Positions 3,640 through 58,564 of a DNA stretch of 64,000 nucleotides are shown here, one piece after another. The DNA is taken from positions 256,122,001-256,186,000 of the forward strand of contig OZ024742.1 in assembly GCA_964016885.1 (NCBI GenBank), given 5' to 3'. The position numbers and the translations under genes were made by a program. Below the pieces are notes generated by a model. It saw only the letters and a list, made by a program, of their open reading frames with translations. It made no database searches and had not been told where the DNA came from. Positions within the stretch are counted from its first letter, which is position 1; each line of letters begins with the position of its first letter. Origin of the DNA: Eledone cirrhosa (lineage: Eukaryota).

Positions 3640-6600
3640 ACAGAAAGTGAACATGGGTCGCAGAAAACATTTCTCATCTAAATCCCAACGCATAGCAGCA
3701 GACGCACAATGACAAAGAGAGATGAGAGCAAATCAATCAAACAATAATCGCTCTACAACATCCCAACACGTTTCTACAAATGTAATTCAGTTAACACACC
3801 AATAACAACTTGCAACAAATAGACCAAACGTTCAGAGAAGAAGGAACAGGTCAATTGAAAAAGTCCGGCAAAAATTCCTACAGATGAACCTTTCCAAGAG
3901 GAAACTGTTCTTTCCATAATGCCACAACATAATGCAGGGTGTCTCTTTGCTTCTGTTTGTCCACAAAGCTTATCGCTGGCCACATATATCCGAATCTCTG
4001 TGCTGATTCCAGGGAAAAGTGAAACTCACTCAACTTCCATTTCTTCCACCAAATATACTGAAATATTTTCATATCACTCAAGCAGGAAATTCTTTTCTTC
4101 ATAAGATACGTGCATATAATAGTGTGCTTGCTTTAGCTTCAATTGGTTGCTAAGAGATTAAAGCACCAGAATTTAGTCCAACATTTAAGATCCGAGGTAA
4201 GATTTGTCATATTATTGGATCACTACTTCCAAGTGATGCTTCACGAAAGTTTGCGCAGCTTTACTCCTATGGAGTTTCAGAATCACTTGCATCATGCCAA
4301 TTTAGACGCTGCTGTCCTACAAGACCTGCAAGAAGACTTGCACCACTGCAAAGCCTATATAAGAAGCTTCAAGGCAGTCATTGAAATGACAGTGTCTGAA
4401 AATGTGAATATTGTCCTACATGCTGACAAAGTAAAACCCACTGATTTTCATCGTCGCATGTATAATCATCCCATGGCATCTGAGATTGCTGTTATTCAAC
4501 CTGATACATCATTAGATATCTTGGATGTCATCATTCATAAAAGAGATGGTAGTCTTCAAAGGATTAATCAGTTTCACCATTCATATGATCCTCTGCATTA
4601 TGTGCTACTGTTTCCTTGGGGAAATGGTGGGTTTCAGGTTGGTTTGAAAAGGATTGACAACCACACACTCACACCCACTGATTTCTACTTTTATAGGTTT
4701 CAGGTTAGGCATGGTGACTGTAACATTATCATCAAGAGCAGCCGGCTGATGATGCCGAGGCAAAAATAGAACATTGTCGCCTAAAATGGGACGGCACCAA
4801 TCAAACCATGATACGAGCTGAAAAATATGCTGTGGCTGAAGGAAATTCAGTAAATACAGGCCGGAGAATTTTTCTTCCTCCATCAATCTATGGTTCCCCT
4901 CGCTTCTACAGTGAGTGCTTTCAGAATTCGATTACTGTAGTTCGATACATGGGAAAGCCATCTTATTTCATCACAGTAACAACTAACCCTAACTGGGATG
5001 AAATAAAAAGTAGTTTGCATCCTGGTAAAGAACTTAGAAACCGTCCTGATATTTGTGCATGAGTCTTCAAGATCCTGGATGACATACTGAAAACAAAATG
5101 TGCTAGGAAAAGTTGTGGCTCATTCTGCTGCTATCGAGTGGCAGAAGCGAGGCCTCACTCATGCTCATATTCGGCTGACGATATCAAGCCCAAACCTGAT
5201 GATGCCATTGATCAGTGAGATCCTGATAAAGAGACTAATCCAATTCTGCAAAAGATCATCTCATCCTGCTACATTCATGGCCCATGTGGTCAAGCTAATA
5301 TGGTGTGCTCATGTATGGAAGGACTAGGACAACAAAACCATTGCTAAAAAAGTTGTCCGAATACATTCAGACAAACCACATTTGTTGCTGAAAATTCCTT
5401 TCCGGAGTCTAGAAGAAGGGATAGACAGCATGTTGGTCACACCCATACCATCCAACTTAAAGGTCAGACATTTACTGTTGATAATCGTTGGATTGTTCCA
5501 TACAACCCGTTTCTATCATTGAGATATCAGTGCCACATCAATTACGAGGTTGTCCACAGTGTCAAGGTTGTTAAGTACTTATATAAGTACATCACAAAAG
5601 GCTCACACAAGATCACTTTCACTATTAAGGATGATCAAGGTAATTGTGTATATGTCCAACATGAGATTGAGACCTATATCAATCCACGGTACATCTCAGC
5701 CAGTGAAGCATTCTGGAGAATCTATAAATTTCCATTACATCATCGGAAACCGCCAGCTGAAAGTTGCCTTGCCATTTACCTGGGGAACAAATGTTCGTGT
5801 ATGAGCGAGGGCAGGAAGAAAGTGTTGTTTCAAGGGGACAGCCAATGACTAAGTTGACTGGCCCAAAACATATTGTATATTGATATTCCTAAATATTTCA
5901 CTTGGACAAACAAAAAGTGGCAAAGAAGAAAAAAGGGACATGTGGATCGTGATTAACAATTTATGAGTGAATCTCTCGGACACATTCCAAAAGTATCTCT
6001 CAGTGGACATCAATCTGAATTATATAATCTCAGGCTGATCCTACAGCACGAGGCAGGGTCAATTTCATGCAAAAATTTGAGGACATTTGAAGGAGTTGAA
6101 TTTCCAACATTCCAAGAAGTATGTAGGAAACTTGGTCTGTTGGTTGAAGATGGAGAAAAAGACAAAGCTATGGAAGAGGCTTCATCAATTACGCTTGCTA
6201 CTCAGCTGCGGGAGATCTTCTGCATCATTTTATTGTACTGCATTGCAAATGACTCTCTGCAGTTCTGGGAGAAATGGAAGAATTGTCTTGCAAACCGTGC
6301 AGATTGCTCTACAGAAGATCCAACAAAGACGTCAACATGATGGCTTGGACATTCATGCCACCTATGGACTCCCTAGTCCAGACACAACTATTGTTGCCAT
6401 ATCATAAATCAACAGGGTTCTTATGGCAGAAACTGATTTCAATACACACCAACTGCAAGCAAACATAAACGAACTTCTGCCCACATTGAATCCTGTGCAA
6501 CTGGTTATATTTCACACAGTAATCACGTCTCTAAATGGAAATGAAGGTAGAATTTTCTGCTTAAATGCCAGTTCAGGCAAGGGAAAAACATATATCATCA

Positions 6601-8368
6601 ACATCATTTTAGATTACATCCGATCTAAGAAAAAAATTGCACTTGCTACTGCCATATCTGGAATAGCAGCCTCTTTGCTTCACAAAGGTAGTACACTTCA
6701 TTCCAATTGCAAGGTTCCTCTCAATCAACTGCTTAATCAACTTGCTTCTTCACAAAGAGAAATGCCACAGGTAAACCTATGCAGCAAGCTGCCCTGTTAA
6801 TTATTGATGAGATAGGTATGGAACATAATGAAATCTTTGAATGCCTTAACAGGAGCTTCAAAGATGTTCGACATTGCAAAAAGCGATTTGGTGGTCTAAT
6901 AATATTACTATCTGGTGACTGGAAGCAAATTCTTCCACTTGTACGTCAAGGTGGTAGACCATAAATAGTTGAAGCAACCATCAAGAGATCCTATCTCTTG
7001 GCCGATGTGGAAACCGTGGAGATGACAACCAATCAATGGTTAATTCATGCAGAGGATTCTGCACATGAACTTTGTCTGGCATATGATAATGTGTCTGGAT
7101 TGTGTGATTTTGTGTATACACATCTTCCAGGAAACTACACAAACCCACTATGGCTTGCAAATAGAGTCATTATCACCCAACAAATGATGCAGCAAGATTG
7201 GTGAATAAGTTCATGGTTAACAAGTTCCCTGGTCATGAAACAATCTACAGAAGCTCTGATACAGTTGAAAATGAAATGAAATATCCAATTGAGTGCATCA
7301 ACAAAGTTACCCCATCAGGCTTCCCGACACACATACTTAAACTGAAGAAAGGCAGTTGCATCATGCTTCTGAGAAATCTGGATCGTCTGAACGCGCATTG
7401 CAATGGCACACGCTACATTATCATCAGTTTACATAATCATGTAATTGAAGCTGAAGTGACATTGGGTCCCAATGCTGGAACAAGGTTGCTAATCCCAAGG
7501 ATACCACATGTATCGCAAGAGCTCGAGTTCCCTTTCACCTTTACTTGCAAGCAATTTCCTGTCAAACCAGCCTTTGCCCTTACATGCAACAAGGCACAAG
7601 GGCAGGCATTTGAAAAGGTAGCTGTAAATATTCTCTCATGGTCAGATGTATGTTGCATTATCACGAGTTACAAAAAAAGAAAATATAAAAATATTAAATG
7701 AAAGGGGTCTGTTTGCTGATAAGTGTGTCTACAAAGAAATTCTACAGTAATGTGAAACAGCTGCCATTCTCTTTTAGTTGAAATGAATTTCAGTTTCTTT
7801 TTAATTGCTAGAAAAGGGACACGACAAAAACTTGTGAATACAGTAAAACAACAATAAAGCGAGGTTCAACTCTTCATATTGGTAAATGTAATTCATTCAT
7901 TCCTACCAGCAGCATCTATTTTCACTGCTTGAAGCTTCCCATTAACATTCTCAAGTGAGGATTCACGAACATTTTCCGTCAACAGTTTCATTGCTTTTCC
8001 ATCTTCACTATTGCACTTCATTATTCCATCTTCATTATTACACTTACTTCTGTAATCAGTAAAGTAATCTATGATACATTTTTTAAATAGGCAATAATTG
8101 TTTCTACTTTTGGCACAAGGCCAGTACCAGTAATGCACTGGGTAATTGCTGGCCTTGTGCCAACAGTAGAAACAGTTATTGCCTTTTTAAAAAATGTATC
8201 ATGGATTACTTTACTGATTACAGAAGTAAGTGTAACACAGTCTTTGTTCAGTTTAGGTTCATATTGATAATTAATGTATCATATCTATGTACATATATAT
8301 TTGCGTATATCAATATGGACACTATGGACACTAGCACAGAACCGCCTGTGGGGTGGTTCTTCTGCTAG
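3640..8368 (+). mobile_element. Degraded autonomous Helitron (RepHel pseudogene with intact 3' terminus)
   Basis: Rep motifs: YFITVTTNPNW (4808 ORF), IEWQKRGLTHAHI (HUH, 5100 ORF), KYLYKYITKG (5519 ORF). PIF1 helicase motifs: ASSGKGKT, LLIIDE, GDWKQILP, QFPVKPAFALTCNKAQGQ. Many stops and frameshifts. The 3' hairpin agaaccgcc-tgtg-gggtggttct (8338-8360) is followed by CTAG (8365-8368) and T. The 5' end is not resolved. Confidence 0.93.
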
Positions 8369-8548
8369 TATATATAATATACATATATCCCGACGACAGT
8401 CTATAAATTGCATTTTAGTCGGAGCTACGAAATCAGTAAAGATCTATTTAATTTTTATAAAATGGCAGAAAGACCCCTCTGGTGAATGGTGAAAATCTCC
8501 AACAATCACACCAAAGTGACTTTTGTTAAATTTAAATCAAATATAAAT

Positions 8549-8740
8549 AATTGTTTCTACATTTGGCACACGGCCAGCAATTACCCAGTGCATTACTGGT
8601 ACTTTATTTTATCTATCCTGAAAGGATGAAAGGCAAAGTTAACCTCAGCGGGATTTGAACTCAGAATGGCAAGGACCGTAACTCTATGCGTCAAAGCATG
8701 GCGTCCCACCCTCTACCGATACTGCCAATCCTCCGCCCTC
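8549..8740 (-). mobile_element. tRNA-derived SINE, full length, with TSD
   Basis: A-box-like tggcagtatcgg, B-box gagttcaaatccc, central gcctttcatcc...gataaaataaagtaccag domain, tail gaaacaatt. 14-bp TSD aatcaaatataaat at 8535-8548 and 8741-8754. Confidence 0.9.
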
Positions 8741-10881: not shown

Positions 10882-11341
10882 ATATCCTCTATGAGGTCAC
10901 TAAACCTGCTAGAAACAGCAGCTAACTCTCCCCCACACCACACCCCTCCGTAATGTCTTAAATTTAGAAAACATATCTTCTATGAGGTCACTAAACCTGC
11001 TAGAAACAGCAGCTAACTCTCCCCCATATCACACCACTCCCTACTGTCTTAAATTTAGAAAACACATATCCTTTATGAGGTTACTAAACCTGCTAGAAAC
11101 AGCAGCTAACTCTCCCCCATATCACACCACTCCCTACTGTCTTAAATTTAGAAAACACATATCCTTTATGAGGTTACTAAACCTGCTAGAAACAGCAGCT
11201 AACTCTCCCCCATATCACACCCCTCCCTACTGTCTTGAATTTAGAAAACATATCTTCTATGAGGTCACTAAACCTGCTAGAAAGAGCAGCTAACTCTCCC
11301 TCATATCACAACCCTCCCTACTGTCTTAAATTTAGAAAACA
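10882..11341. repeat. Minisatellite, ~92-bp unit, ~5 copies
   Basis: The unit tatgaggtcactaaacctgctagaaacagcagctaactctccccc...aaatttagaaaaca starts at about 10890, 10981, 11074, 11167 and 11258. Confidence 0.92.
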
Positions 11342-11639
11342 CAAACAACCATGCATAACAACTCAATCGCAGCTCTGTTGTTCGGCTGGCATCGTCTACG
11401 CGCGTGTTGCGCAAGTACTGTGAAACAATACATTTCAACACTTTTTTGCACGGAGATAATATCCATAGGCGAAACTACAATTGTCACTGCTGGCGCAGCT
11501 CCTGCTTCCAGGTCTGCAATTCATTCACCCAGTGCCTGGCAGACAAAAAAGTGGTGCCATAAAATGGGTGGTGCAACCTAACTTTGGTAACTTAATGACC
11601 CCGAGCAACACGGGCTTTAATGCTAATATATATATAAAT

Positions 11640-11719
<80 letters not shown>

Positions 11720-13395
11720 TAAAATAACAGATTAAAGTTTAAGCAAAGAATCGCTGCTTTCACCCTTAACGGGATCTTCTGAAACTAACAAAGTCAATCT
11801 GTAAACGCAGAACTGGATATTTCAAAAAACGTTGCAACCGGAGGAAGACAGGAAGACGATACTTTGGTTCATGGTGACGTTCGCTGGCAAAGAACGGGAA
11901 AAAACGAATAATACGTCATTAATAGGAGCGGTGAAAAACAATTACGTGCAAGGACAGAACCACGTTTATGGTATAAAAGAGGTCGTAGACTAATGTTCTC
12001 TAAGTGGTGCATAGAGACGTTCTCTGGCAATGAACGAAAAAACGAAGATAATAAGTCATATGTGGAGCATGGAGGACAATAGCGTGCAAAGACAAAACCA
12101 CGTATGTGGTATAGCAGAAGTCATAGACTAAAATTCTAACTAGGAGACCGAATGAATCTCCGCTACAGAGTTAAGAACAAAGCAAATAAATACAATACAG
12201 AAGTAATAGGAACAAATAAATACATACACGCAAACAGATACGTACATACACAAGCATACGCATAACCTTACCATAGGTATACAAAACCACGCACATATAA
12301 ATATGTGTATGTGTGTATGCTTGTGTACAAATAAATAAATAATTATATAAACGTATATAAGTAAATAAATACGTATATAACAAGCGCACACACATACCTA
12401 CAAATAAATACATGAAGGTTCGGAGACGTAAGTCAACTAAAACAAGAAGTACACATATACACACACCCACCATACGTACGAATCTGCATACTCACGCAGA
12501 CGCAAAACTCCCATATACACATAACCAAGCCCTAAATACCAGAATATGTAAACATTATACGCCAAAACAGTCAAATATACGTACGAGAAGGTATACATAC
12601 CTTCACAAAACATACGGGTAATATATACTTACCTATGCAAAAAGTAAAGGAATAAACAAAACATATACTTAGCTCCCACATCAAGACGTAAATATCCACG
12701 TATAGATCGTGCTATCCGTTAGGGTATAACGTAGGGCTGTAATACAGGAAAGTTTTGTGCAATTTATGTTTACAAGCCGAAATTGCCTCAGATTTTTTGT
12801 TTAAGATGTGGTCTGTGGCGTAGAGTATTTCCAGGGCCTCAGCGGCGCAGAGGTCACATGGTCTTTTATTTCCGTTATACGATCTAGCCCTAGCTATGAT
12901 CTCCCAGTGTAACTTATATTGTGTGTGGTTGTCTTTTAGACTCCAGATATAAGCTGAAAGTGACGTCATATTCCTTCTTAGAGGGTAACGAAAAGAATGG
13001 GTATGCAAGTAAAGACGCTGCTTGAAACTATTGGCGATTAACCCTATGTAGGCCCTACGGGACGTGGGTGTTATAACCTTTCATTTGTAGACAATGTTAA
13101 AAGAGAGGCATTTCCCGGATAGGGGACAATCAGCCCGATTCCTACAATTACAGTTAGTACTAACTACAGGGTTGCACGTGTTCCTACGGCTAGGTATTTT
13201 AGCTAAATTTGAAGCTGTGATGTTATGTGCAAGGTTAGGAGTCGTTGAGTAAGAAATTTTAATAGTGTTTCTATTAAAAATTCTACTATATTTATGTGTA
13301 GGGGGAAAATGCTTCGTAATAAGGGAAAGAAAGATCTTAGCTAATGGTGTGGCCACCTCCATATTATATGATGGGTTAAACCAACAAATGCGACG
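11720..13395 (-). mobile_element. 5'-truncated PLE (Naiad-like) with GIY-YIG endonuclease and ~1-kb 3' UTR
   Basis: WFNPSY, KHFPPTHKY...FNRNTIKISYS, CNCRNRADCPLSGKCL (CxCx5C), IVYK*...YIGL, WEIIARA...CDLC...LNKKSE. The 3' UTR carries a duplication of about 145 bp and ends in an HHR. Both ends lie in (TA)n. Confidence 0.88.
11736..11786 (-). ncRNA. Type I hammerhead-like motif, core variant CAGAAGA
   Basis: Minus strand reads agttt-CAGAAGA-tccc gttaa gggt-GAAA-gca gcgattctt tgc-TT-aaact. All three stems form; U4 is replaced by A. Confidence 0.65.
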
Positions 13396-25882: not shown

Positions 25883-25956
<74 letters not shown>

Positions 25957-26169
25957 ATGTATATATAGTATTAAGGATACTATTTATGGTTATGTATATA
26001 CTAAAACCTTTTATAGTTATATATATTTTATATCCTAAATAGTGAAAGACAGTAATTTATTACTATCTTATTACCAGCAAGATAAATAGCTCAACGTAAC
26101 AACATCAGTTGTTTTACAGAACAGTTATATAGAGATTACATGAATCAAAGTTCTGTTTAAATCATTTAT

Positions 26170-26218
26170 TTGCTTACAATTGTTTCTTCCAAACCGAGGT
26201 TTAGAGTCTTCGGAGCAA
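26170..26218 (-). ncRNA. Type I hammerhead motif, U4C core
   Basis: Minus strand reads ttgct-CCGAAGA-ctctaaacc tc ggtttggaa-GAAA-caattg-TA-agcaa. Confidence 0.78.
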
Positions 26219-26830
26219 TTATTCAGTGATTTTTAACATACTTGACCTCCTTTTCAACACAAAAGACATATAGAAACATATGTATATATTGACCCACAGT
26301 GGGTTGACATCCATTATAATAATATAGCATGGTAATTTACATATAAAGATTACAGTCATATTAAAGGACAAAATTAAAGTTAAAATTAAAATTAAAATTA
26401 AAATAAAACATTGGCAGTTTACTAAGATAAAGCAAGAGGAAAGTCTTGAGTAGCCAGTGTATGCCACAGTCACACGTGTGACATGCACGCGTGTCCTATT
26501 AATACAAAATTATTACACGTAACAATCTGCCGCACTATAATCTTGTATTAATAGGACACGCGTGCATGCCACACGTGTAACTGTTGCATACACTGGCTAC
26601 TCCAGACTTTCCTCTTGCTTTATCTTAGTAAACTGCCAATGTTTTATTTTATTTTTATTTTAATTTTAACTTTAATTTTGTCCTCTAATATGGCTGTAAT
26701 CTTTATATGTAAATTACCATGCTATATTATTATAATGGATGTCAACCCACTCTGGGTCAATATATACATATGTTTCTATATGTCTCTTGTGTTGAAAAGG
26801 AGGTCAAGTATGTTAAAAATCACTGAATAA

Positions 26831-26879
26831 TTGCTCCGAAGACACTAAACCTCGGTTTGGAAGAAACAATTGTAAGCAA
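26831..26879 (+). ncRNA. Type I hammerhead motif, U4C core
   Basis: ttgct-CCGAAGA-cactaaacc tc ggtttggaa-GAAA-caattg-TA-agcaa. Stem I is 5 bp, stem III is palindromic, and the triplet is GUA. Confidence 0.78.
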
Positions 26880-27134
26880 ATAAATGTTTTAAACAGAACT
26901 TTGATTCATGTAATCTCTATATGTATATATATACATTTTTATAATTTTCATAATTTTGATAGGTTTCTGAATAGCTTTCTCATGACGTTAAAGTTTAAGA
27001 AGTTGAAATATGTCAGAGTCACGTGTACTATGTGTACCATTAGACTAAATCTCAGAGGAATTCAGCGTGACACAGTATGTGTCAAGATTGGTCCTTCAAA
27101 TTGGAAGAACAGTTCAACTTATATTATTATCTAT

Positions 27135-27238
27135 GTGGTTAACTTTTCCTTTCATCATTACGGGTCGATAAAATAAAGTACTAGTTTAAATACTGTATTA
27201 ATTGCTGGCCTTGTGCTAAAAAGTAGAAACAATTATTA
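27135..27238 (+). mobile_element. 5'-truncated SINE copy
   Basis: gttaacttttcctttcatcattacgggtcgataaaataaagtact...ggccttgtgctaaaaagtagaaacaatt. Confidence 0.8.
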
Positions 27239-31733: not shown

Positions 31734-33140
31734 CTAATATTTAAAAGTTCTTCTCACTTTATGATTAGATGATATAATTAATTCCTGTCGTTTATTTAAT
31801 AGGATATCCTTAGATTTCATTATTTCAAAAAGTTCCTGGGAACATAATCTACATTCATATCTATTATTTTGATAAGGGGTGGCCCTTTTGAGCACACTCC
31901 AGGTCAGGTTATAATCTATATTCCTCTTTCTATAATTATTAATTATTTCAGCTAAAGATGTATTAGCTAATGCGGAATTTTTAAAACTGTGTTTGTTGGT
32001 ATTAAATCTTACTTTAAATTGGTAAGAAGTAGCTCCTATATATGAATAAGTTGAGTCCTTAGTGTTAACTTTACATTTATATACTATATTATTAATAAGG
32101 CAGTTCCCTTTTAATGGGCAATTTGCTTTGTTTCTACAGTTACAACCTTTCGTGAATGTTGTATCAGAGGAGATAGTCAAATTAGGTGTGGAATTTTCAC
32201 GACTTGTTGTATATGAATGAGATGGTGGTTTGCTGTGGATTATTTTAGTATTATGGTTAGTTTGATGTATTGGTGGTATATGATTGTTTTTTTTACATTT
32301 ATATGCATTATAGGCACTTATATTTTGTTGTATATTTTTGGTTGTTGAGTAGGAGAATTTAACCGTTGATCTATTTAAAATTTGATGGTATTTGTGGTTT
32401 GGCGGGAAGTTTTTCTCGAGGATAGTAAAAACATTTTTAGGGATATTATCTTTAATTTGTAGATTAAATGGAGCATTATACCAAGTAACACGTCTATTAC
32501 GGTTTCGATGTTGTTTATTATTTTTATAGGATGTATCCTGATGTTTATTAAGAGAATTATTGTTAATGATTTCATTACACATATTTTTAGTTAGATTCAT
32601 TGATTTAGGTATTTTAGCCTGTTTACTAGGAATTTTATTATTAACATATATTGGAGTATTAGGATGAATAGGTTTTTGAATGTTACTATATTGTATATTA
32701 GAAGAGTTAGAGAAATTAAGTTTTATGTTGTTATTTTTGGGTATAGTGTGAGTGGCATTTAGGTGTGTATATTTCATTTGGTGTTTGTTGGTAATATTGG
32801 GTTGTATGTTTGTAGTGTTATTGTTACAAGGTATATATACTAATTTGTTTTTGTGGCCACTCATAGCTAAAGCTTTGTTATAAAAGGTCGCATTTTTATC
32901 AAATACATCCTGGTTAGACGAAAGGTTAGAAATTCTGAGTGAGATATTATATGCTAGGTTTTTAAGGATAGATTTAGGGTGATTAGATTGTGAGTGTATG
33001 TAATGTAAGTTTTGGTTAGGTTTATGGTAAGGTTGGTAGATACCCGTAGATAAGTCTAATGTTATATCAAGGAAATTAACTACTTTACTTGTGTTTTCAA
33101 ATGTAATATCTAGACTATAATAGTGTTTGAGGAAAGTTCT
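31734..33140 (-). pseudogene. Longest open segment of the PLE polyprotein (RT thumb, Asn/Ile-rich linker, GIY-YIG)
   Basis: The 376-aa ORF at 31734-32864 extends in frame upstream to about 33140. The RT core is frameshifted and interrupted by a SINE. Confidence 0.85.
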
Positions 33141-33404
33141 AATAAGATTTTATTTTTTTCAATTTCTGATAGGCTAAGGAAAGAAGAAGACAGTCGTCAC
33201 GATATAAATCACCTTTCAGGTGGGGAAAAGAAGCATTTATGTTAAACAGAAGAAAGATGCCCACAAGATCGGTAATTTGGGCAGAATCACTTGAGCCCAT
33301 AGTAATGTCGAATAGATTACTATATGTGTTTCTGGTCCAGTATTCTTTTTGAAATTCCAGTAGTGTTTGTCTAGCATGTGTGATAATATTAATGTCATCC
33401 ATAG

Positions 33405-33600
33405 GGACATCCAAGGGCAGTGGATTTGCAGTATCAGTAGAGAGTCGGACGCCATGCTTTCCAGCATAGTTACGTCCCTTTACGGTCTGAGTTCAAATCC
33501 CGCCGAGGTTAACTTTGCCTTTCATCCTTACGGGGTCGATAAAATAAAGTACCAGTAATGTACTGGGTAATTGCTGGCCTTGTGCCAAAAAGTAGAAACA
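33405..33600 (+). mobile_element. tRNA-derived SINE inserted into the PLE RT, with 17-bp TSD
   Basis: Same family as 8549-8740. TSD attaatgtcatccatag at 33388-33404 and 33601-33617. Confidence 0.93.
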
Positions 33601-33962
33601 ATTAATGTCATCCATAGTTAAGTTTGATCTATTTTTGGCAAATATCAAGGCTTTGTTCAGGAGTATAGGTAATATAGAGGAATAATAATTATCTATATCG
33701 AATTGTAGAAATGAAGCAGAAGATTTATTTCTAATATTAGTAAACCAGTTAATTACCTGGGATGTGTTTTCCCAGAGTGGTAAATTAACATGTTTTCTTA
33801 ATTGTGGGATGACTCTATCTAAAATTAGTTTACTAATGATGCCGACATACCAACACAAACATATATATCCTAGAAACGATCGTAAAATGATGAATTTTTT
33901 AATATAAGGAACTGTTTCTTTGTTTTTATTCAGTATTTTTTTAATTAATTTATCATGACTCT

Positions 33963-34044
<82 letters not shown>

Positions 34045-36300
34045 TTGATGACGAATAATATAATATCCGGTAATGGGAATGAAAGTTGAGGAGGAACGAT
34101 GGGGAGTGGATTATGCAGAATTATTGGTCTGGTTATTTTGATATGACATTTAAAGTCTCCCCTCTCTCCTTGTTGACTAAGAAAGTGGTTTTATTATGTT
34201 TGATAATATGAATGCTCACGAACTGGGTATATTGAAAATAGTGACATCAATACACTTAAAGATTTAGAAAAAAATCATAGGTTTATCTACTTCCTGGACA
34301 TCACTTTTCACTTTTGTTACACTATTTCTAATAACAATGCGTATAATTTGGGAAATATTTTGAAAGAAATCAATAATTTGCAGGATTTAATAAAGTAAAT
34401 AAATTTTCAATTATTAAACTATTGTGATGGAGAGTTTTAGATGAATATAAATAATTATAAAAAAAATGTTTTGAACCATAAAATCAAAGCTGCTTTCAAA
34501 CAGTTTAGTATCATTTAATAATGTATACGCCTCATATCAATGCTTGCTGGGCTCTTAAATTCTGACAAGTGCTGATTTTTACCTGCTAGACTAGACCAGG
34601 AGTATCGATTCTCACACGAGGATGGCATACGGTGCTGTGGAATGAATTACCCTAGGTTAGGAGATCCTACATGTTAGCAACACAAGAAACAATATAGAAG
34701 CTACTGGCTTTCTTAAATCTTAATACCATGTACTTACCGAAACAGTATAAGACATTAACAAAATTACAAAACAACACACACTCCATCACATTAAACATTG
34801 TAGACCTTACTCTAATACAACTACTTTTCGAAGCAACCTATCCTCTAGTAAACATACTATAAACCTTCGAATTAAGAAAAAACTATATGACGCGATATAA
34901 GCAAAACTTTCCTGAAAATAATATAATAGCACTATGACGGAAGTGCGTTACAACTAGATATTACTCTCATTCTGCAAATATTAATAAAAAAAATATGTCT
35001 AATAGTAAAATTACTATAAACAATTTAATTAACAAACCTGTTTTTATATGTTTTCTTCTAAGTCATTACAGAACACTGAGAATTGATTCCCAACTTTGCA
35101 TGTGTAACATTTATGTAAAAGAAGGATTGCACTGCAAATTTAATCCAGGCATTAGTAAACATTTATATTACTTTTTTTAATATTGTTATATTTGAGGAGG
35201 GTCATTTTGTCCTAATATTACCAGAAAAATAGTAAAACACACTCACATTTTGGTTTGGCTTCGCTTAGACAAATTAGGAGGAGTACAGAAATAGAATTAT
35301 GAAAAAATAGGCTGAACAGAAAACATCAATGAAATAACAACAACCATACACAGACACACACTAGTGATCTAAAATAGTCTATAAATATACACAGATGCAA
35401 TAACAACACCAAAGCAAACAGTGAGTCTCTTTTAAAATTTTCTAGCCAAATTAAGACAACAATAACTGTTTCAACAAACGATTTCATAACAGAATCCTTG
35501 CCAAATGAATACATCGCCATTATTTCTTAAAAATATTTTCTTCTAAATGATTACTGAATAAGAAGAGTTGAAGCCCTTCAAGTACATTTTCCTTTTTGTC
35601 ATTTTTAGCAATTTTTGAAAGTCTGGATTATTTGAAAGTTGACAAATTCTAACTACCAAATACGTTTTATACAGAAAAAAAGGAAACTTTAGATTTACCA
35701 TAATGTTTCTATACAGGTGGCGCATTGGCAAAGTCATAGGAGCATGGGATTAAATGCAGTAGGAATGATAAATAAAGTGTCTGTCCAGGGGACGGTTGAT
35801 TCGTGGAATTGTTAAAAAAAAAATCGAAGATAATTTGAATTCTGAGTTGATATCCCGTATCATTCTGCCCGATGTTGAGACCAACAGATAGTATGAACAA
35901 TAATAAAACCTAGTTACCTTGAGCAGGTCCACACATCGGTTCCTTTCATTTCTCAATATTGAAATATAATGATTTCCCTATACTTTTTCCTCAACGTCTG
36001 TTGTCGTTTCCAATAAATTATTCAGGATGTAAATTTAACAATCATTTTACGCAGATTTACCTACCATTTTAACTAACGTTTAACTCATGAATATAACTAA
36101 TCCACTATATCAAACTCAGAGTTAGCCACCATCTTACCCAGTTTTACCAACGATTTCAAATTACCCGTAATTTTACACATCATGTTAATCTTAGAGGTGT
36201 GGTGCATACGATTTTAATTTTCTCGCAATTTTACACACAATTTATATATAATTATAATTTATTCTAAATTTTAACCAACATTTTATTATACCCAAACTTT

Positions 36301-36480
36301 GGCAGTATCGGTAGAGGGTTGGATGCCATGCTTTGCAGCATGGAGTTATGGCCCTTTACGGTATGAGTTCAAATCCCGCCAAGGTTAACATTACCTTTCA
36401 TCCGCACGGGTTCGATAAAATAAAGTACTAGTAATGCAATGGGATAATTGCTGGCCTTGTGCCAAAAGTAGAAACTATTG
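36301..36480 (+). mobile_element. tRNA-derived SINE
   Basis: ggcagtatcggtagaggg...gagttcaaatcccgcc...gataaaataaagtact...ggccttgtgccaaaagtagaaac. Confidence 0.9.
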
Positions 36481-36924
36481 TTTCCGCATTCAGAATGTTC
36501 TTCCTCCTCATCATTACTTCCTGCTTGGGCATCCCTGATCTATTGTTTGCTCCTTCAATACATTATTATTATAGCAACAATGGATCCACACATTATTTTC
36601 TGAAAGAATATATATAAATACACTCACTCACACAGACGCAGACACACACACAAACTTATCTATATATATGTGTATGCTGTCTCCACAATATGCTCTGGTT
36701 TTCAAATAAATTCATTCTATCTTAGTGTTTCCTAACTTCTCTTCCATACTCATCTAATTTCTAATGAAGACCTAACATACGATATGTTGAGACACGTCTT
36801 TCACCCTTTCACACAAGCGTCAATCTAATAAATATTTTTGTAAATGGTTGTCCGTGTTTGTTTTCATTGTCTAGTTTATACTGCATGCATGTGTGTTCAC
36901 GCGTATTAATGTGATTCTTTGTAT

Positions 36925-40020: not shown

Positions 40021-40049
40021 TCAAAAAAGAAACATTATATATAAAGAGT

Positions 40050-40230
40050 GGATTGGCAGTATCGGTAGAGGGTCGGACGCCATGCTTTGATACATAGAGT
40101 TACGGCCCTTGCCATTCTGAGTTCAAACCCCGCCGAGGTTGAGTTTGCCTTTCATCCTTACGGGGGTCGATAAAATAAAGTACCAGTAATGTACTGGTTA
40201 TTTGCTGCCCTTGTGCCTAATGTAGAAACA
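40050..40230 (+). mobile_element. tRNA-derived SINE with 16-bp TSD
   Basis: TSD attatatataaagagt at 40034-40049 and 40231-40246. Confidence 0.92.
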
Positions 40231-40491
40231 ATTATATATAAAGAGTAATGAAATTATGTGAGTACAGATTTACGTTTAAATAATTGTTTTGATTGCATGG
40301 CATATATTTGAATGGCATGGTTACCCAATGATTATTTCATTCAGTTTCCATGTGGCATCATTAAATGCTCATAAAATTATGAGGTGTCATTATGCAAGTA
40401 TGGAGATATGTCGCCATATTGCTTAAACCGGTTTATGCCCAGGTCGTTACGGTGTTACCACAATTGATAATCCCCATAATTATCTGCATTA

Positions 40492-43165: not shown

Positions 43166-43754
43166 TATATATATATATATATATATATTAGTAAAAAGGA
43201 ATAGAAAATGCTGACGAAGTTTTCCCAGTGAAAAATAGTTTAATTAGGAATAAGTATGAATTAGTAATAAGTATTGGTTAGTATTCAGTTTTAGTTTTAA
43301 GTTTTTACCGGTTGCGCATTTCTAATGCTTTTCAAAAATAATTTTGAGATAGAGCGCTCGTGATGTTTGTTCTATAGAGCAAACATCACAAGCGCTCTAA
43401 GGATTTTCTTTTCCCTTTTACTAATATATTACAACTCGTGTGTCACACCTCTATTTAAAAAAAAAAAAATAATAATATATATATATATATATATATATGG
43501 TTTTAAATTTTGATACCACATATATATATATATATACCATATATATATATAGTATTAGTTATACTATTTATGGTTATGTAAATACAAAACCTTAAGCAGT
43601 TATAAGTATTTTACACACACCCTAAATAGTGGTAGGCAGTAATGTATTACTACCTTATTACCAGTAAGTTAAGTAGCTCAATGTAAAAACATCAGATGAT
43701 TTACAGAGCAGTTATATGAAATATAAGAATCAAAGAACTGTTCAAAACATTATT

Positions 43755-43803
43755 GTGCTTACAGCTGTTTCCTCCAAACCGAGGTTTGGATTCTGCGGAG
43801 CAA
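43755..43803 (-). ncRNA. Hammerhead motif, mutated core CCGCAGA
   Basis: Mirror of 45861-45909 with an additional A6C change. Confidence 0.6.
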
Positions 43804-45860
43804 TTTATTAATGCATGGACAGTTATATGACCTCCTTTTCAGCCGAGAGACATTCCGATACATATTCAAACATTGATACATATTCCAACATTGTGGGTCA
43901 ACATTCATTACAGAATTTAGAGTGGCAGTACACAATTCGAGATTACATTTATATTAAGAGGTACAATCAAAAATCAAAAATACAGGTTAAAATACAACAT
44001 GAAGATAAGCGGTTATATAGTGCAAATGTTATATGTATGGCACGCATGTGCGTCTTGTTTATATAGTGTGGCAGAGAGATATGTGTGGTAGAGGCACTTA
44101 GGTAGGTAAACAAGAGTGTTAGGTTGGTAGATCTGGTGGCAAATTCTTTATATGATTGATATAGTCTGTGTGTGGAGAAATGTTATAAGCATTAAAATTA
44201 GTGCAAGCATTAAAAGTGTTAAAAGTATTCGAGATGCACAGCGAAGGGATGTCAAGTATTTCATGTACTTCGGCATTTTCATGGTCAGGGGAGTGTATTT
44301 TTCGATTATATGCCCCTCACATAATCCACGACAATCCGATATTGAGCGTTTGACAATCCAGTTAGAGATCGTAGTCTGGTGTTCTTTAGTTCAATACAGG
44401 AGGCTGTTACGTTTCGAGAAACGCCATTGAATACCACCCGGAAGTGTGTGTGTGGCTAAGGGGAGTTAATACATGCGGGGAGGTAACTCCGGCGTTTCTA
44501 AACCTAGCTATTAAAATGTGTCACAATATAGACCCTAATTTCTATGGTGATGCGCATCCTCCAAGAAAATTTTTAAAGCATAAAGTATATTAACTATAGA
44601 GTAGTTTAATTAAGTTATGCTGAAGGTGATCATATTATTATGGTGGATTAACCCATCGTAAGGTGCCACAAATGGAAATTATAGATGATGAGCGAGGATT
44701 CTAAAATAATGATCTCTGTGGTTGTAGTCTACTACATTGCAACTGCCGTGCGGGTTGTACATATATGGATGATCTGACGGCCAGAGAGGGGTCGCGAGGA
44801 CTGCGGATTGACCTCTGGCCGGCCTGGGGATGATTATCTTTCGACATCCAATGTAGCAAGCGTTGACCCAGAACTTACCAGTGATCATTGGGTCCTGAAG
44901 CAATCCTGCAATCACCGCGCCTGGTCCTATGAGTAGACTACAACCACAGAGATCATTATTTTAGAATCCTCGCTCATCATCTATAATTTCCATTTGTGGC
45001 ACCTTACGATGGGTTAATCCACCATAATAATATGATCACCTTCAGCATAACTTAATTAAACTACTCTATAGTTAATACACTTTATGCTTTAAACATTTTC
45101 TTGGAGGATGCGCATCACCATAGAAATTAGGGTCTATATTGTGACACATTTTAATAGCTAGGTTTAGAAACCCCGGAGTTACCTCCCCGCATGCATTAAC
45201 TCCCCTTAGCCACACACACACTTCCGGGTGGTATGCAATGGCGTTTCTCGAAACGTAACAGCCTCCTGTATTGAACTAAAGAACACCAGACTACGATCTC
45301 TAACTGGATTGTCAAACGCTCAATATCGGATTGTCGTGGATTATGTGAGTGGCATATAATCGAAAAATACACTCCCTGACCATGAAAATGCCGAAGTACA
45401 TGAAATACTTGACATCCCTTCGCTGTGCATCTCGAATACTTTTAACACTTTTAATGCTTGCACTATTTTTAATGCTTATAACATTTCTCCACACACAGAC
45501 TATATCAATCATATAAAGAATTTGCCACCAGATCTACCAACCTAACACTCTTGTTTACCTACCTAAGTGCCTCTACCACACATATCTCTCTGCCACACTA
45601 TATAAACAAGATGCACATGCGTGCCACACATATAATATTTGCACTATATAACCGCTTATCTTCATGTTGTATTTTAACCTGTATTTTTGATTTTTGATTG
45701 TACCTCTTAATATAAATGTAATCTCGAAGTGTGTACTGCCACTCTAAATTCTGTAATGAATGTTGACCCACAATGTTGGAATATCTATCAATGTTTGAAT
45801 ATGTATCGGTATGTCTCTCGGCTGAAAAGGAGGTCATATAACTGTCCATGCATTAATAAA

Positions 45861-45909
45861 TTGCTCCGAAGAATCCAAACCTCGGTTTGGAGGAAACAGC
45901 TGTAAGCAC
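45861..45909 (+). ncRNA. Type I hammerhead motif, U4C core
   Basis: ttgct-CCGAAGA-atccaaacc tc ggtttggag-GAAA-cagctg-TA-agcac. Stem III is the palindrome CAGCTG, versus CAATTG in the 26-kb copy. Confidence 0.8.
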
Positions 45910-45939
45910 AATAATGTTTTGAACAGTTCTTTGATTCTT

Positions 45940-45971
<32 letters not shown>

Positions 45972-47635
45972 GATATAGATATATATGGTTTTGATACCAC
46001 TGGGATAAATGTAATACACTTCAATCCTCCTCGTTTGATATTTTCTGCATGGAAATTCACAAAAGAAATTAATAATAATCTGTATAAATTTCTTTAATAT
46101 AGCTTTTAGTGTTGACACAAATGTTGTTTCAATTTTCTAGCAACTTTCCTTCAATGTGTAGCTATTGAAAATGTTTTATCTAATATTTATGAAGCATATT
46201 TTGCAATCTCCGTCTATATGACATCATACGCATACATTTTGAAACTCTCTTTATGTATATAAATTACCTCTATGCAAATTTCTAGCATGACCGCCCAAAC
46301 GGAAACTATTAAATATTTCGCCACAATAGCCTATGTCTAGCATGATGAATTGGTGAACACAATTATGCATAAAAATACCTGAAAATTCTTCTAGTATTCA
46401 GAAGGCTTTGACTACTCATCTCAAATAATCCACACTAACCAACCCAAAATACCTGCAATATAAAATTATAATGCCTGACGTATCGATAAATATATACAGT
46501 GTTTGCTTTCTATCAGAATTGCAGATGAAGAATGGATATACGATGTTTCCATGCCTCGTATCAGAAAGTAGTAGAAACGTAAATTTAAAAAAATTACTTT
46601 TATACTAACTGAAAAATAAACACAAAACGAAATGACCCGATTGTCAAAGGTGAAGGAAGAAATTATATTTTTACTCGCCATTCCATTGCTGACGTTATCA
46701 GTTCATCACAACTACTAATGAACGCAGAGCGACAACATTTCAACCTATCCATCTCAACTGCTTCCTGGCCTAGTATATTATAAATAGAATCCTGAAACGA
46801 TCGAAGAGAAATTCGACTTCGCTAAGATTCGAACTCCTAACGAAGAATTCTAACAATCCAATCTAACAAGCCTTTAACTACATTATATTTTAACGCACGA
46901 TACCTCATCACATTTTCAGACAGCATCAAAAACTACAATCACCATCCGAGGATTTTGATGATGAATATTGAAGTTGTACGATTAACGGACAACATAAACA
47001 TGACCAAAATGTGTAAATGGGTGAGGATTCGAATTATATCAGCAGGCTATACCTTTGATCAAATAGCTGGTAGACACCTCGTTGAAACAGATGGAGTATC
47101 ATCGTTCTTCTTGTCACAGGTGAAGTAATCCTTATCTTAACCAGGAATATCAGAATATCTTTTATCAACAAATTAATACAATTCGAATTTTAAAGGATTA
47201 ATTATATTTCGCCTTATCTAAGTTTCATTCTTATTGAATAATAATGGTTATCAACGATTGAATGTGTATTGAATGTCATAGAAAAAATAACGTAATATTG
47301 TTTAAAATGAAACCATCAGGAGAAGGGATATGCAATCTTGATAACCGCTAGCGAGCGAGAAATGGCCATCGGTGGTTTCCTTTTGTTTTTGCCAAGACTA
47401 AGCAAGTGACATTAAAACTGCGAATGGTCTTTAAAATGTTATTAAATAAACATACAGTATATTATCAAATATGCTATACATACATCGATACATACATCGC
47501 TACTTCAGAAGAACTGATACTAATATATATATATGTGTGTGTGTATATATATATACATGATGGCTGCCCCCTCGTTATCGAGTATGGCCATTGCACGAGA
47601 AAAAACATCATAATGTTAACAACAATAATAAAAAT

Positions 47636-47725
47636 AAGTGTTTCTACTTTTGGCACAAGGCCAGCAATTAACCACTATATTACTGGTACTTTATTTTATC
47701 GACCCCGTAAGGAGGAAAGGCAAAG
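47636..47725 (-). mobile_element. 5'-truncated SINE copy
   Basis: gtttctacttttggcacaaggccagcaatt...ctggtactttattttatcgaccccgtaagg. Confidence 0.85.
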
Positions 47726-51922: not shown

Positions 51923-51986
<64 letters not shown>

Positions 51987-51988
<2 letters not shown>

Positions 51989-53530
51989 CCGGGATGTCTA
52001 GTTTTAGGGCACGTTGGAATCCATTGGTGATTAGGGATGGTGGGTAGTTTCTGCTGATAAGTGTGTTTTTTAATTCTTCTAGTCGTGTGTAGCATGTGTA
52101 TTTATCTGAAACTATTGTGCAGATCCTTCTGGCTGCGTTATAAGGAATTGCCCTTTTGGTGTGTCTAGGGTGGCACGAGTTGAACGGAAGGTATTGTTTG
52201 GAGTCTTTGGGTTTCTAGTATATGTCTTAAAAAACACACTTATCAGCAGAAACTACCCACCATCCCTAATCACCAATGGATTCCAACGTTCCCTAAAACT
52301 AGACATCCAGGAACTCAGACACCCCAAACCGAGGGGTGAATCGCAACAAAACACTCTACCATACATCTCCCCACACAACCCCCTCAACAATGAGGCATTC
52401 GATACCATCCTCCAGAACATTCCTTTACTAAAAAGAGACCCAAGAATTAACAATATCCTCCAAACACACAACATCATAAAGAGCAAAAGACAACCCAAAT
52501 CCATAAAAAGCATCCTCACACAAGCCAAAATCCATCAAGCCCTCACAATAAACCCTAGAGTAACAAAATGCGGAAGGCCCAACTGTGGCATATGCATAAA
52601 TCTAATAGAAGGTTCAACATTCAATTTTAAACAAGGACAACGTTTCACAGTTAAACACAACTTTACATGTGCATCTGAAAACCTTATCTATGTTTTGACT
52701 TGCTCAGGTTGTCTAGAGCACTATATAGGACAGACGAAAAACAGCCTCCGTCAACGTATGACCGTCCATAAATCAGAAATTAAAATACAGGAATACAGAA
52801 AGATTGCATTTATTGAACATATCGCCAACTGTGCTCTCAACCAACTTCCAAACTTTAAAATTGTCCCCATTTACAAATTCATAGACAACGCTACTTTCAT
52901 CCAACGCACCAATAAGGAAACACATTTCATTAATATATTTCAACCAGTACTCAATGCCCTAAAATTCGGACATTTCTAAAACTGCAACAAACCATCAAAC
53001 ATTTACAAGAGTTACCTCCCTCACACCCTACCTAATCCTTTTTCTTAAATAAATTAAATATTACCCAGCAAGAATTGTTTCCACCTGCATATTAACTCTC
53101 TAAAAAGGGAAATCACAGTCCACCATTTGCCTCCTTCACGGAACCATGGTTCAACTAAACACTCTTGCGATATTAACACATTTTGAACTGCTTAACTTCA
53201 ATGACTGTGCTTGTAAATAACATTAACTTTTCTTCCACATTGACTTTTTATGCTCTACATTATGCAGTTTTTTTTTCTTTTACTTTTTTCTTTTCACTTC
53301 TTAAACCTTGTTTGTAAATAACATTATTCTTTCTGCACCTTCTGTTTAACATGTGCGACAACACACTAATACATTTCACTATCATTTGATAATGCATATA
53401 AATGCAGAAACCGGTAATAGACAATAATTAAATATACCAATAGATAAATAAATGGCATTGTTAAGTAATAAATAAATCAACTAATACCTTAACACTTCAC
53501 ACAAAGTAAAACATTTCGTTTTAATCATTT
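51987..53530 (+). mobile_element. 5'-truncated PLE (Neptune-like) with inverted 5' segment
   Basis: ORF 52161-52979 contains CGRPNCGIC and NLIYVLTCSGCLEHYIGQTKNSLRQRMTVH (GIY-YIG). The upstream thumb motif KPKDSKQYLPFNSCHPRHTKRAIPY is on the minus strand at 51987-52228. A degenerate HHR lies at 53379-53420. Confidence 0.9.
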
Positions 53531-57670: not shown

Positions 57671-57794
57671 ACTGTCTCTCTCTCCCTCTCTCACTCCCTC
57701 TCTCACTCCCTCTCTCCTCACGCACAGGAAAGTGAGACATTTTTTGTCAGATTCTGTATATATAAATGGAACCTGAGTTTTTTTAATATTAATA

Positions 57795-57915
57795 TTAATA
57801 ATTGTTTCTACTTCTGGCACAAGGCCAGCAATTAACCAGTGTATTACTGGTACTTTATTTTATCGACCCCGTAAGGATGAAAGGCAAAGTTAACCTCGGC
57901 GGGATTTGAATTCAG
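57795..57915 (-). mobile_element. 5'-truncated SINE copy
   Basis: Runs from the tail to the B-box (gggatttgaattcag) of the same SINE family. Confidence 0.88.
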
Positions 57916-57916
57916 A

Positions 57917-58150
57917 TAATACTATTCAATTCGTTTGCAATTATGCAAACATCCTCTTTTAAGCTATGTCAGTAGAATGAGCCTCTCGACTGTTAGCAGG
58001 TGAACAGCAAACTGCACTGATAAAGCCATACACATTATTGTCTGCAGTTCTGTTTACATGCCAACACAGGAGCAAGAATGAGAGGCTCATTCTACTGACA
58101 TGGATTAAAAGAGGCTGTTTATATAATTGCAAACGAATCGAATAGTATTA
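57917..58150. mobile_element. Palindromic MITE-like element
   Basis: About 70-bp terminal inverted repeats: taatactattcaattcgtttgcaattat...gtcagtagaatgagcctctc / gagaggctcattctactgac...ataattgcaaacgaatcgaatagtatta. Confidence 0.8.
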
Positions 58151-58157
58151 TTAATAA

Positions 58158-58350
58158 AAGGTGGTGAATTAGCAGTATCGATAGAGGGTCGGACGCCATG
58201 CTTTGCAGCACAGTTACGTCCCCTTACAGACTGAGTTCAAATCCTGCCGAGGTTAACTTTGCCTTTCATCCTTACGGGGTCGATAAAATAAAGTACCAGT
58301 AATGCACTGGGTAATTGCTGGCCTTGTGCCAAAAGTAGAAACAATTATTA
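58158..58350 (+). mobile_element. tRNA-derived SINE, full length
   Basis: ggtggtgaattagcagtatcg...gagttcaaatcc...gtcgataaaataaagtaccag...gaaacaattatt. Confidence 0.92.
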
Positions 58351-58564
58351 ATATTAGAAGAACTCAGATTACATATATTGTATTCAGCCATGTAGACTCT
58401 ACATTGTTGTGCGATAACTGTTTGTCAGTTATCTTTATATATAGTTTCCTTTAAATTCGTGATTAAAGTGGGAACTAGTTGATAGGGGAAAGATGAATTA
58501 ATGGAGAGAAGGTTGTGATGTATTAAGCGATGGAATAAAGAGTAGAAGGAAGAAGTAGAAAACA

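Follow-up and report, generated by a model that had tools for sequence, protein, structure and literature searches.

How does a long, nearly perfect palindrome with a ribozyme motif on each strand come to stand in a genome, and can its ribozymes act there? The question is raised by a window of 64,000 nucleotides (nt) from Eledone cirrhosa (assembly GCA_964016885.1, contig OZ024742.1, positions 256,122,001 to 256,186,000 of the forward strand; "the window" denotes this whole stretch), in which positions 43549-45951 form an inverted repeat with a hammerhead-like motif on either strand. A first-pass annotation had seen here a fold-back unit, non-coding or decayed, mobilised by a Penelope-like element (PLE). 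The palindrome is very probably a single dead insertion of a young PLE, likely made head-to-head by paired priming; the hammerhead of this family likely cuts a small share of its RNAs, and in the window copy it would be trapped.

Structure of the palindrome

The inverted repeat consists of positions 43713-44733 and 44932-45951, which align over 1,021 bases with 98.5% identity (14 substitutions and one 1-nt gap). The near-identical arms of about 1,020 bp that had been noticed are thus real, and the mirrored arms do lie 198 nt apart, but the interval is not a spacer: 197 of its 198 bases (44735-44931, + strand) are element sequence, i.e., an unpaired 5′ extension of the right arm, which runs on into the arm without a break in most of 28 further loci. 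The remaining base, an extra A at 44734 that belongs to neither arm, is the head-to-head junction. Mapped onto a natural copy of the family (L046), the whole palindrome corresponds to the 3′ untranslated region (UTR) of a PLE. The left arm (43549-44733, - strand) is a 5′-truncated piece of this UTR, equivalent to L046 8021-9205, and is 96.5-98% identical to L046 and 98% identical to other copies. The right arm (44735-45951, + strand) is a second 5′-truncated piece, equivalent to L046 7825-9041, with 97% identity to L046 over 1,218 nt. The left arm has a long 3′ end and the right arm a short one, and the 164-nt tail between the two ends (43549-43712, - strand) has no mirror in the right arm. 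The structure is thus asymmetric: the left piece extends 164 nt further, to about 43549.

The palindrome is flanked by a (TA)n-rich target on the left (43475-43548) and a (TA)n target on the right (45952-46000); 43493-43519 in the left flank repeats 45980-46000 in the right flank with a 7-nt insertion, which resembles a target duplication. The palindrome holds only short reading frames, and the open reading frame (ORF) for reverse transcriptase (RT) and GIY-YIG endonuclease is absent from the window copy. The proposal of an inverted, 5′-truncated PLE insertion is borne out by these two head-to-head truncated pieces, a layout in print for other PLEs (Craig 2021, PMC8557442; Arkhipova 2013, PMC3846280; Frangieh 2024, PMC11167929): there, too, head-to-head 5′-truncated copies are described with a tail at one end, two fixed 3′ ends that are taken to mark RT start sites, and an AT-rich target.

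When the two arms are compared with 46 other copies, four rare variants are common to both arms (two found in no other copy and two in one), and eight private changes from the family's commonest base are seen in the left arm and six in the right. Shared and private variants together point to a single source, after which each arm decayed independently, by about 0.7%. The same differences bear on whether the palindrome could be a fold-back artefact of assembly or of a chimeric read, which the first-pass annotation had itself envisaged. The junction is not bridged by any listed contig of another sample (four runs from one study, with the family at high depth), but this proves nothing, because the insertion is young and possibly polymorphic. 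An artefact is scarcely credible: the arms differ at 15 places, with changes split between left and right as given above, their ends coincide with two family-wide termini, neither arm contains the other, and the flank duplication stands on both sides.

It is also very unlikely, if less so, that one arm was copied from the other by DNA-templated snap-back, or that the palindrome arose by later local inverted duplication or gene conversion. Such a process would account for the rare variants shared by the arms and for some tiny fold-backs of the family in which both arms start at one base, but the tail is found only in the left arm and the segment equivalent to L046 7825-8020 only in the right. 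Since neither arm contains the other, a read fold-back and a simple snap-back copy are excluded at the window locus.

The parent family and its two 3′ ends

The right arm matches a large young family, with 2,110 candidates, of which the 40 scored are 95-100% identical; twenty 10-kb stretches were used to reconstruct the parent element. The parent unit, taken from L046, has 4,218 bp and comprises an upstream pseudo-LTR (long terminal repeat), one ORF and a 1.7-kb 3′ UTR with a hammerhead near its end; partial-tandem pseudo-LTRs were seen in L046, L037, L038, L150, L172, L183 and L270. An uninterrupted ORF of 832 codons is present in three (L172, L183 and L270) of 25 loci screened for their longest frame. 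Counted from its first methionine, the intact protein of L270 has 819 amino acids, with YRDD at residues 354-357. The family thus has the single ORF with RT and C-terminal GIY-YIG that characterizes the endonuclease-bearing (EN+) PLEs. There are 107 protein homologues, many with PF26215 and one named, from Octopus bimaculoides. Profile searches count against this assignment: Pfam matches to RT and GIY-YIG were under the curated cut-offs or absent, those to GIY-YIG being weak (E 0.005 and 0.019), and a Pfam search of the intact 819-residue protein gave no significant match.

Among the C-terminal EN+ PLEs, the family resembles the Hydra clade as described by Craig et al. (2021, PMC8557442), which is marked by RW(K/R), DKT, a CxCX5C linker, CxxC..E..N..CxH without CCHH, and a (TA)n target. 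The family protein P0108 has RWR at 38-40 (conservative for RWK) and DKT at 123-125; the linker C678-N-C680-x5-C686 and the residues C776xxC779, E782, N795 and C804xH806 were read by eye, again with no CCHH, and the target is likewise (TA)n. The N-terminus and the RT align by eye with the protein of Hydra-1_Obim, the hammerhead of which is unrelated in sequence. Two typical, though not defining, Hydra traits are lacking. Members of that clade are generally smaller than 3 kb, unlike the 4.2-kb unit with its long 3′ UTR, and their hammerheads are canonical (CTGA in 26 of the 26 rows of File S2 in PMC8557442), in place of CCGA. The family also differs from that clade in its thousands of copies. 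On its sequence, the parent is a Penelope-like retrotransposon that is young and autonomous and whose protein bears Hydra-clade motifs; we file it as a Hydra-like variant. One member, L172 (G000:C1:56974508-56984718), is a 10-kb fold-back with an intact ORF, whose two more-than-unit-length arms are 99.9% alike; it is a very recent insertion.

The PLE origin that had been proposed is thus upheld, as the arms are 3′-UTR pieces of a unit with an intact RT and GIY-YIG ORF elsewhere. It was also asked whether the motif might lack conservation in the family and any tie to a PLE ORF; the motif is family-wide, and intact ORFs are present in other copies.

Fold-backs are common in this family. The sample comprised the first 100 motif matches in position order (contig C1, 0-70 Mb), which represent 77 insertions, and 37 of these are fold-backs. 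Outward-facing motif pairs on opposite strands within 7 kb numbered 17, compared with 0.23 expected by chance. Every 3′ end lies at one of two places, 164 nt apart: the short end (L046 9041) or the long end (L046 9205). All 37 fold-backs have one of each, 35 being scored directly; two apparent exceptions were resolved in the same way, L149 clearly and L134 with a noisy long tail. The 40 insertions that are not fold-backs gave 23 short and 19 long ends. The arms range from about 35 nt to 4.4 kb and their overlap from none to 4.4 kb, with arm lengths and junctions varying from locus to locus. Thirteen of the 37 overlap by at least 200 bp at 90% identity or more, so the window copy is long but not exceptional, and rare variants common to both arms were found in 8 of 13 other fold-backs. 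By extrapolation from the 77 insertions, such fold-backs probably number about 2,000 in the genome, some 700 of them having a duplex of at least 200 bp; as a rough figure, arms of the family cover about 5e-4 of the sampled 70 Mb.

This frequency might suggest that the palindrome is a distinct non-autonomous fold-back element, similar to a MITE or a retrozyme, which multiplies as a whole palindrome and has its effect by way of long double-stranded RNA (dsRNA). The inverted arm of L033 does begin at the same position, 8021, as the left arm in the window, but the other arm of L033 is 2 kb longer. Arm lengths span the range given above, junctions are different in each locus, that of the window has no second copy among the 30 best matches, and no sequence specific to such a unit was found. 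The existence of a distinct element is thus highly improbable. The description of the palindrome as a non-coding or decayed unit moved by a PLE has to give way to that of a truncation product of an autonomous family with intact ORFs, in which each insertion has its own junction.

The presence of one short and one long end in every fold-back points to paired priming at two RT start sites. The enzyme of the element would nick both strands of a (TA)n site, and two cDNAs would be primed, one nicked strand at the long start site and the other at the short site, 164 nt away; both cDNAs would end early, and their ends would be joined head-to-head. If the enzyme worked as an asymmetric dimer that primes both strands of the target, each two-armed insertion should draw on two different start sites. 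The hammerhead would be present in both arms for no other reason than its position, 47 nt upstream of the inner start site. We infer the two-strand nicking and the paired priming by analogy with the PLE protein of the anole, which in vitro is reported to cut and extend both strands of AT-rich DNA and to start at two internal RNA sites bounding the genomic tail, and for which a dimer is predicted (PMC11167929). The strict rule of one short and one long end goes beyond what has been demonstrated in vitro, and two observations do not favour it: with the anole enzyme, the two strands are reported to have shown no difference in RT start site in vitro (PMC11167929), and the 37 do not include two fold-back-like loci, L173 and L181, whose inverted pieces are internal and lack a terminal end.

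Both start sites (L046 9041, and 9205, which equals 4987) adjoin the same 9-mer, TAACTGCTC. At the long site, TAACTGCTC is present only if a second unit follows; provided that the motif plays a role, copies with the long end would have to be made from a template that is tandem or circular. The shared 9-mer and the pairing of ends without exception set the family apart from published PLE inverted insertions, as does the tail, which is 164 nt long here compared with 30-40 nt as given in PMC8557442 and PMC3846280. At short-end junctions, stuttered copies of TTTCATATA often stand before the (TA)n (L125, L132, L136, L181, L209 and L217), like the product of repeated re-priming at the start site. 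The architecture of the palindrome is ordinary and already described, even within the Hydra clade: Penelope-13_HM is given as having a 966-nt inverted, 5′-truncated copy with a hammerhead on both strands (PMC8557442), and opposite-strand hammerhead pairs 100-700 bp apart have been published (PMC4209133).

The hammerhead motif and the pile-up of 5′ ends

The right motif (45862-45908, + strand) has the core CCGAAGA at 45866-45872, a stem I of 4 bp (TGCT/AGCA) extended by an internal loop, a stem II of 7-8 bp with A.G at its base, the sequence GAAA, and the palindromic stem III ACAGCTGT; cleavage is predicted after GUA, between 45904 and 45905. The left motif (43756-43802, - strand) has the core CCGCAGA and a predicted cut between 43760 and 43759. 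Three helices around a core, an NUH cut triplet (GUA) and GAAA conform to the type I layout. A hammerhead had been placed about 45 nt inside each outer end. There is indeed one type I hammerhead-like motif per strand, each reading outwards from the centre, with the predicted cut 47 nt inside the mirrored ends, but the left cut site is 211 nt from the true left end, and neither core is the canonical CUGANGA. Both have C in place of U at position 4 (U4C), and in both stem II has A.G mismatched at its foot. The left core also has A6C, at 43795, a private change, as all 46 compared copies have A in that column.

The identification as a hammerhead rests on family-wide conservation and covariation. 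A 28-letter pattern of the motif gave 5,449 matches and its control none; the canonical U4 form gave 66, which is the level expected from CpG decay. A pattern one N longer gave 32 insertion variants, 29 with CCGA and 3 with CTGA. In the 100 sampled motifs, the core is CCGAAGA in 98, stem III is CAATTG in 42, CAGCTG in 33, CAGTTG in 19 and otherwise in 6, and the stem II foot (10.1-11.1) is A..G in 83, C..A in 11, C..C in 3, and T..A, C..T and A..A in one each. The motif is a conserved island across subfamilies that are about 75% alike (ungapped flank figures, which understate identity), and its stem III stays palindromic across them through covariation between CAGCTG and CAATTG.

The motif shares a short stem I, a stem II of 7-8 bp and a small palindromic stem III suited to dimers with the minimal or atypical type I PLE hammerheads of Cervera and De la Pena (2014, PMC4209133), from which it differs in its fixed U4C and in having no G10.1-C11.1 pair. 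Many of the Hydra hammerheads in File S2 of PMC8557442 have an unpaired or mismatched base at the stem II foot, as here, and a comparable stem III, GAAACAG..CTGTA. U4C is cited in PMC3088659 as a natural viroid variant with reduced activity in vitro and retained infectivity; rare there, it is fixed here in a whole retrotransposon lineage. A hammerhead with A6C is reported to cleave at under 0.1 per minute, and hammerhead descriptors of the form CYGANGA, which admit C at position 4, are given in PMC13481778. In a literature search, no report was found of a fixed U4C PLE hammerhead or of a pile-up at the cut site, though Lunse et al. 2016 may list U4C PLE hammerheads.

If the ribozyme cleaves in vivo, copies of cut RNA should begin at the cut site, which was predicted beforehand from hammerhead numbering. 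Across about 2,080 copies of the window's subfamily, those in which the base preceding a chosen position departs from the family sequence were classed as either junctions or point changes. Of the 24 matches at the predicted cut site, 17 were junctions, from 15 insertions, the others being six point mutants and one small deletion. At control offsets -8, -2, -1, +1 and +3, the junctions amounted to 2/9, 3/10, 1/7, 5/13 and 2/9, respectively. In terms of insertions, 15 at the cut site compare with 2, 3, 1, 4 and 2 at the five controls (binomial p 5e-6), and Fisher's test of junctions against point mutants gave p 8e-4. In two insertions (L209/210 and L215/216) both arms start at the cut site. L270 begins exactly there and extends over a whole unit, still intact; in its template, cleavage thus probably took place at the first of two hammerheads but not at the other. 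An arm start in L150, at 8975, was rejected as a cut-site end, as it lies 20 nt upstream, in stem II. In an older subfamily, the whole hammerhead of L281 (G000:C18:17893386) is deleted, the 3′ breakpoint coinciding to the base with the predicted cut site.

These genomic ends are probably the trace of low-efficiency hammerhead cleavage in vivo, which would probably act as a dimer through ACAGCTGT or with the help of protein. This reading goes beyond what has been demonstrated in vitro, and a number of results weigh against it. Rfam scans found no hammerhead at the gathering score or at E<=10, the fold of 81 nt is not significant on its own (z -1.4), and the lowest-energy fold of the monomer has no stem III. 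U4C and the mismatched base of stem II should make the ribozyme less active. The controls were limited to five positions, and microhomology of 2-7 nt blurs the end in 5 of the 17 junctions. Copies that begin at the cut site make up under 1% of the roughly 2,080, and in the anole system, as described in PMC11167929, no RNA ends were found at the cut site. No peak was seen in the older CAATTG subfamilies (2 breakpoints and 11 point mutants in 13 hits, scored with no control positions). Their predicted stem III dimers are weaker (-8.4 and -5.4 compared with -13.1 kcal/mol), which would fit the missing peak, although this argument was made after the fact.

The palindrome could have the same origin and yet carry a catalytically dead hammerhead, the hairpin being a signal for protein binding or RT positioning and the pile-up coming from RT stalling, transcription start or microhomology. 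The non-canonical core and stem II base, the lack of an Rfam match, the older subfamilies without a peak and the more than 99% of copies that run through the site are all in keeping with this, as is the report that cleavage is dispensable for insertion in vitro (PMC11167929). We nevertheless regard a dead hammerhead as unlikely, as the peak is one base wide and at a site predicted beforehand, both arms begin there in L209/210 and L215/216, and stem III is palindromic across subfamilies. A stall of the RT before stem III would give ends at offset -1, where there is one junction, and a stall before stem I ends at +3 or more, where there are two. Copying of a cap tends to leave a preceding G, but none of the 17 junctions is preceded by G (13 T and 4 C), which argues against transcription start. 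Cleavage at low efficiency thus remains the preferred reading, and we lean slightly towards the broader proposal that a Hydra-type lineage has fixed a weakened U4C hammerhead that still cleaves germ-line RNA, and that every two-armed insertion uses two RT start sites.

The window copy, its surroundings and wider meaning

Both arms in the window run through the cut site, so the RNA from which they were copied had probably not been cut. If the locus were transcribed by read-through, the antisense arm would be the first to be made and would pair with the hammerhead. The predicted energy of the duplex over the 47-nt motif is -88.6 kcal/mol, compared with -7.6 to -9.6 kcal/mol for the local fold; as the duplex is far more stable, the hammerheads would be trapped, and those at this locus are, on these predictions, presumably inert. 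The energies support the earlier suggestion that a 1-kb duplex would hold the ribozyme in such a transcript.

Long near-perfect fold-backs are substrates of ADAR when transcribed, as described by Porath (2017, PMC5625713), where heavy editing of a lizard Penelope and the richness of octopus in potential dsRNA are also mentioned. The many long fold-backs of the present family are candidate sources of edited dsRNA, an idea that is plausible but not new. An imprint of A-to-G changes was sought in 46 inserted copies, and no excess was found (33 A>G vs 42 T>C, p=0.36). The copies thus give no indication that edited templates were used, editing of host transcripts being outside that test. No convincing exon of a host gene was found in the window, where all ORFs of at least 110 amino acids are transposon debris as read by eye; an intronic position is possible.

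The window contains an older fold-back at 25893-26943, from a sister subfamily about 75% identical to that of the palindrome; its arms are 94.9% identical, with the long end on the left and the short on the right, the core CCGAAGA and the stem III CAATTG. At its centre (about 26410-26640) is a nested hairpin-like stretch unmatched to the young copy. A canonical type I hammerhead of another family (CTGATGA, stem III TGATCA, 10-bp stem I) adjoins a (TA)n run at 1262-1345 (- strand), and in the fetched flanks of many loci at least two further families are represented by hammerheads with canonical cores and TATATA or TATGTA as stem III. Broken ORFs of other Hydra-type PLE families lie at 31734-34110 and 12712-13080 (both - strand), the first 33% identical to P0108 over 485 amino acids; a simple downstream scan found no hammerhead for either. 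The endonuclease end of a Neptune-type PLE (CxxxxCxxC linker, HYIGQT) is at 52110-52979 (+ strand) and carries a short inverted arm (51986-52073 and 52227-52314). Decayed Helitron-like frames for Rep and PIF1 helicase occupy 4137-7701 (+ strand; motifs read by eye). A perfect short hairpin with arms of about 24 bp lies 150 bp to the left of the insertion (43344-43410); its scores with miRNA models were weak, far under the gathering cut-offs. There are also about ten copies of a SINE-like repeat of 100-200 bp in both orientations (8123-8739, 27134-27238, 33414-33607, 36299-36483, 40034-40248, 47626-47725 and 57762-58378) and a tandem array of five 93-bp units at 10882-11343.

What is new in this family is the 164-nt tail, the rule of two ends in 37 of 37 fold-backs, and a fixed U4C hammerhead whose probable cleavage has left its mark in the genome, for a class of ribozymes about which PMC4209133 states that there is no in-vivo evidence. 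Counting the 5′ ends of genomic copies base by base is a cheap and general test for cleavage by PLE ribozymes in vivo. As the test was positive for a ribozyme missed by CUGANGA searches and by Rfam, such variants may be under-counted. How PLEs come to insert in inverted form is unexplained, and the strict pairing of a short with a long end limits the mechanisms that are possible. If the readings given here are true, they would provide in-vivo evidence for the activity of an animal PLE ribozyme and a rule that explains PLE inverted insertions, and the genome would keep a fossil record of cut templates, one base wide, to which a full-length copy beginning at the cut would belong.

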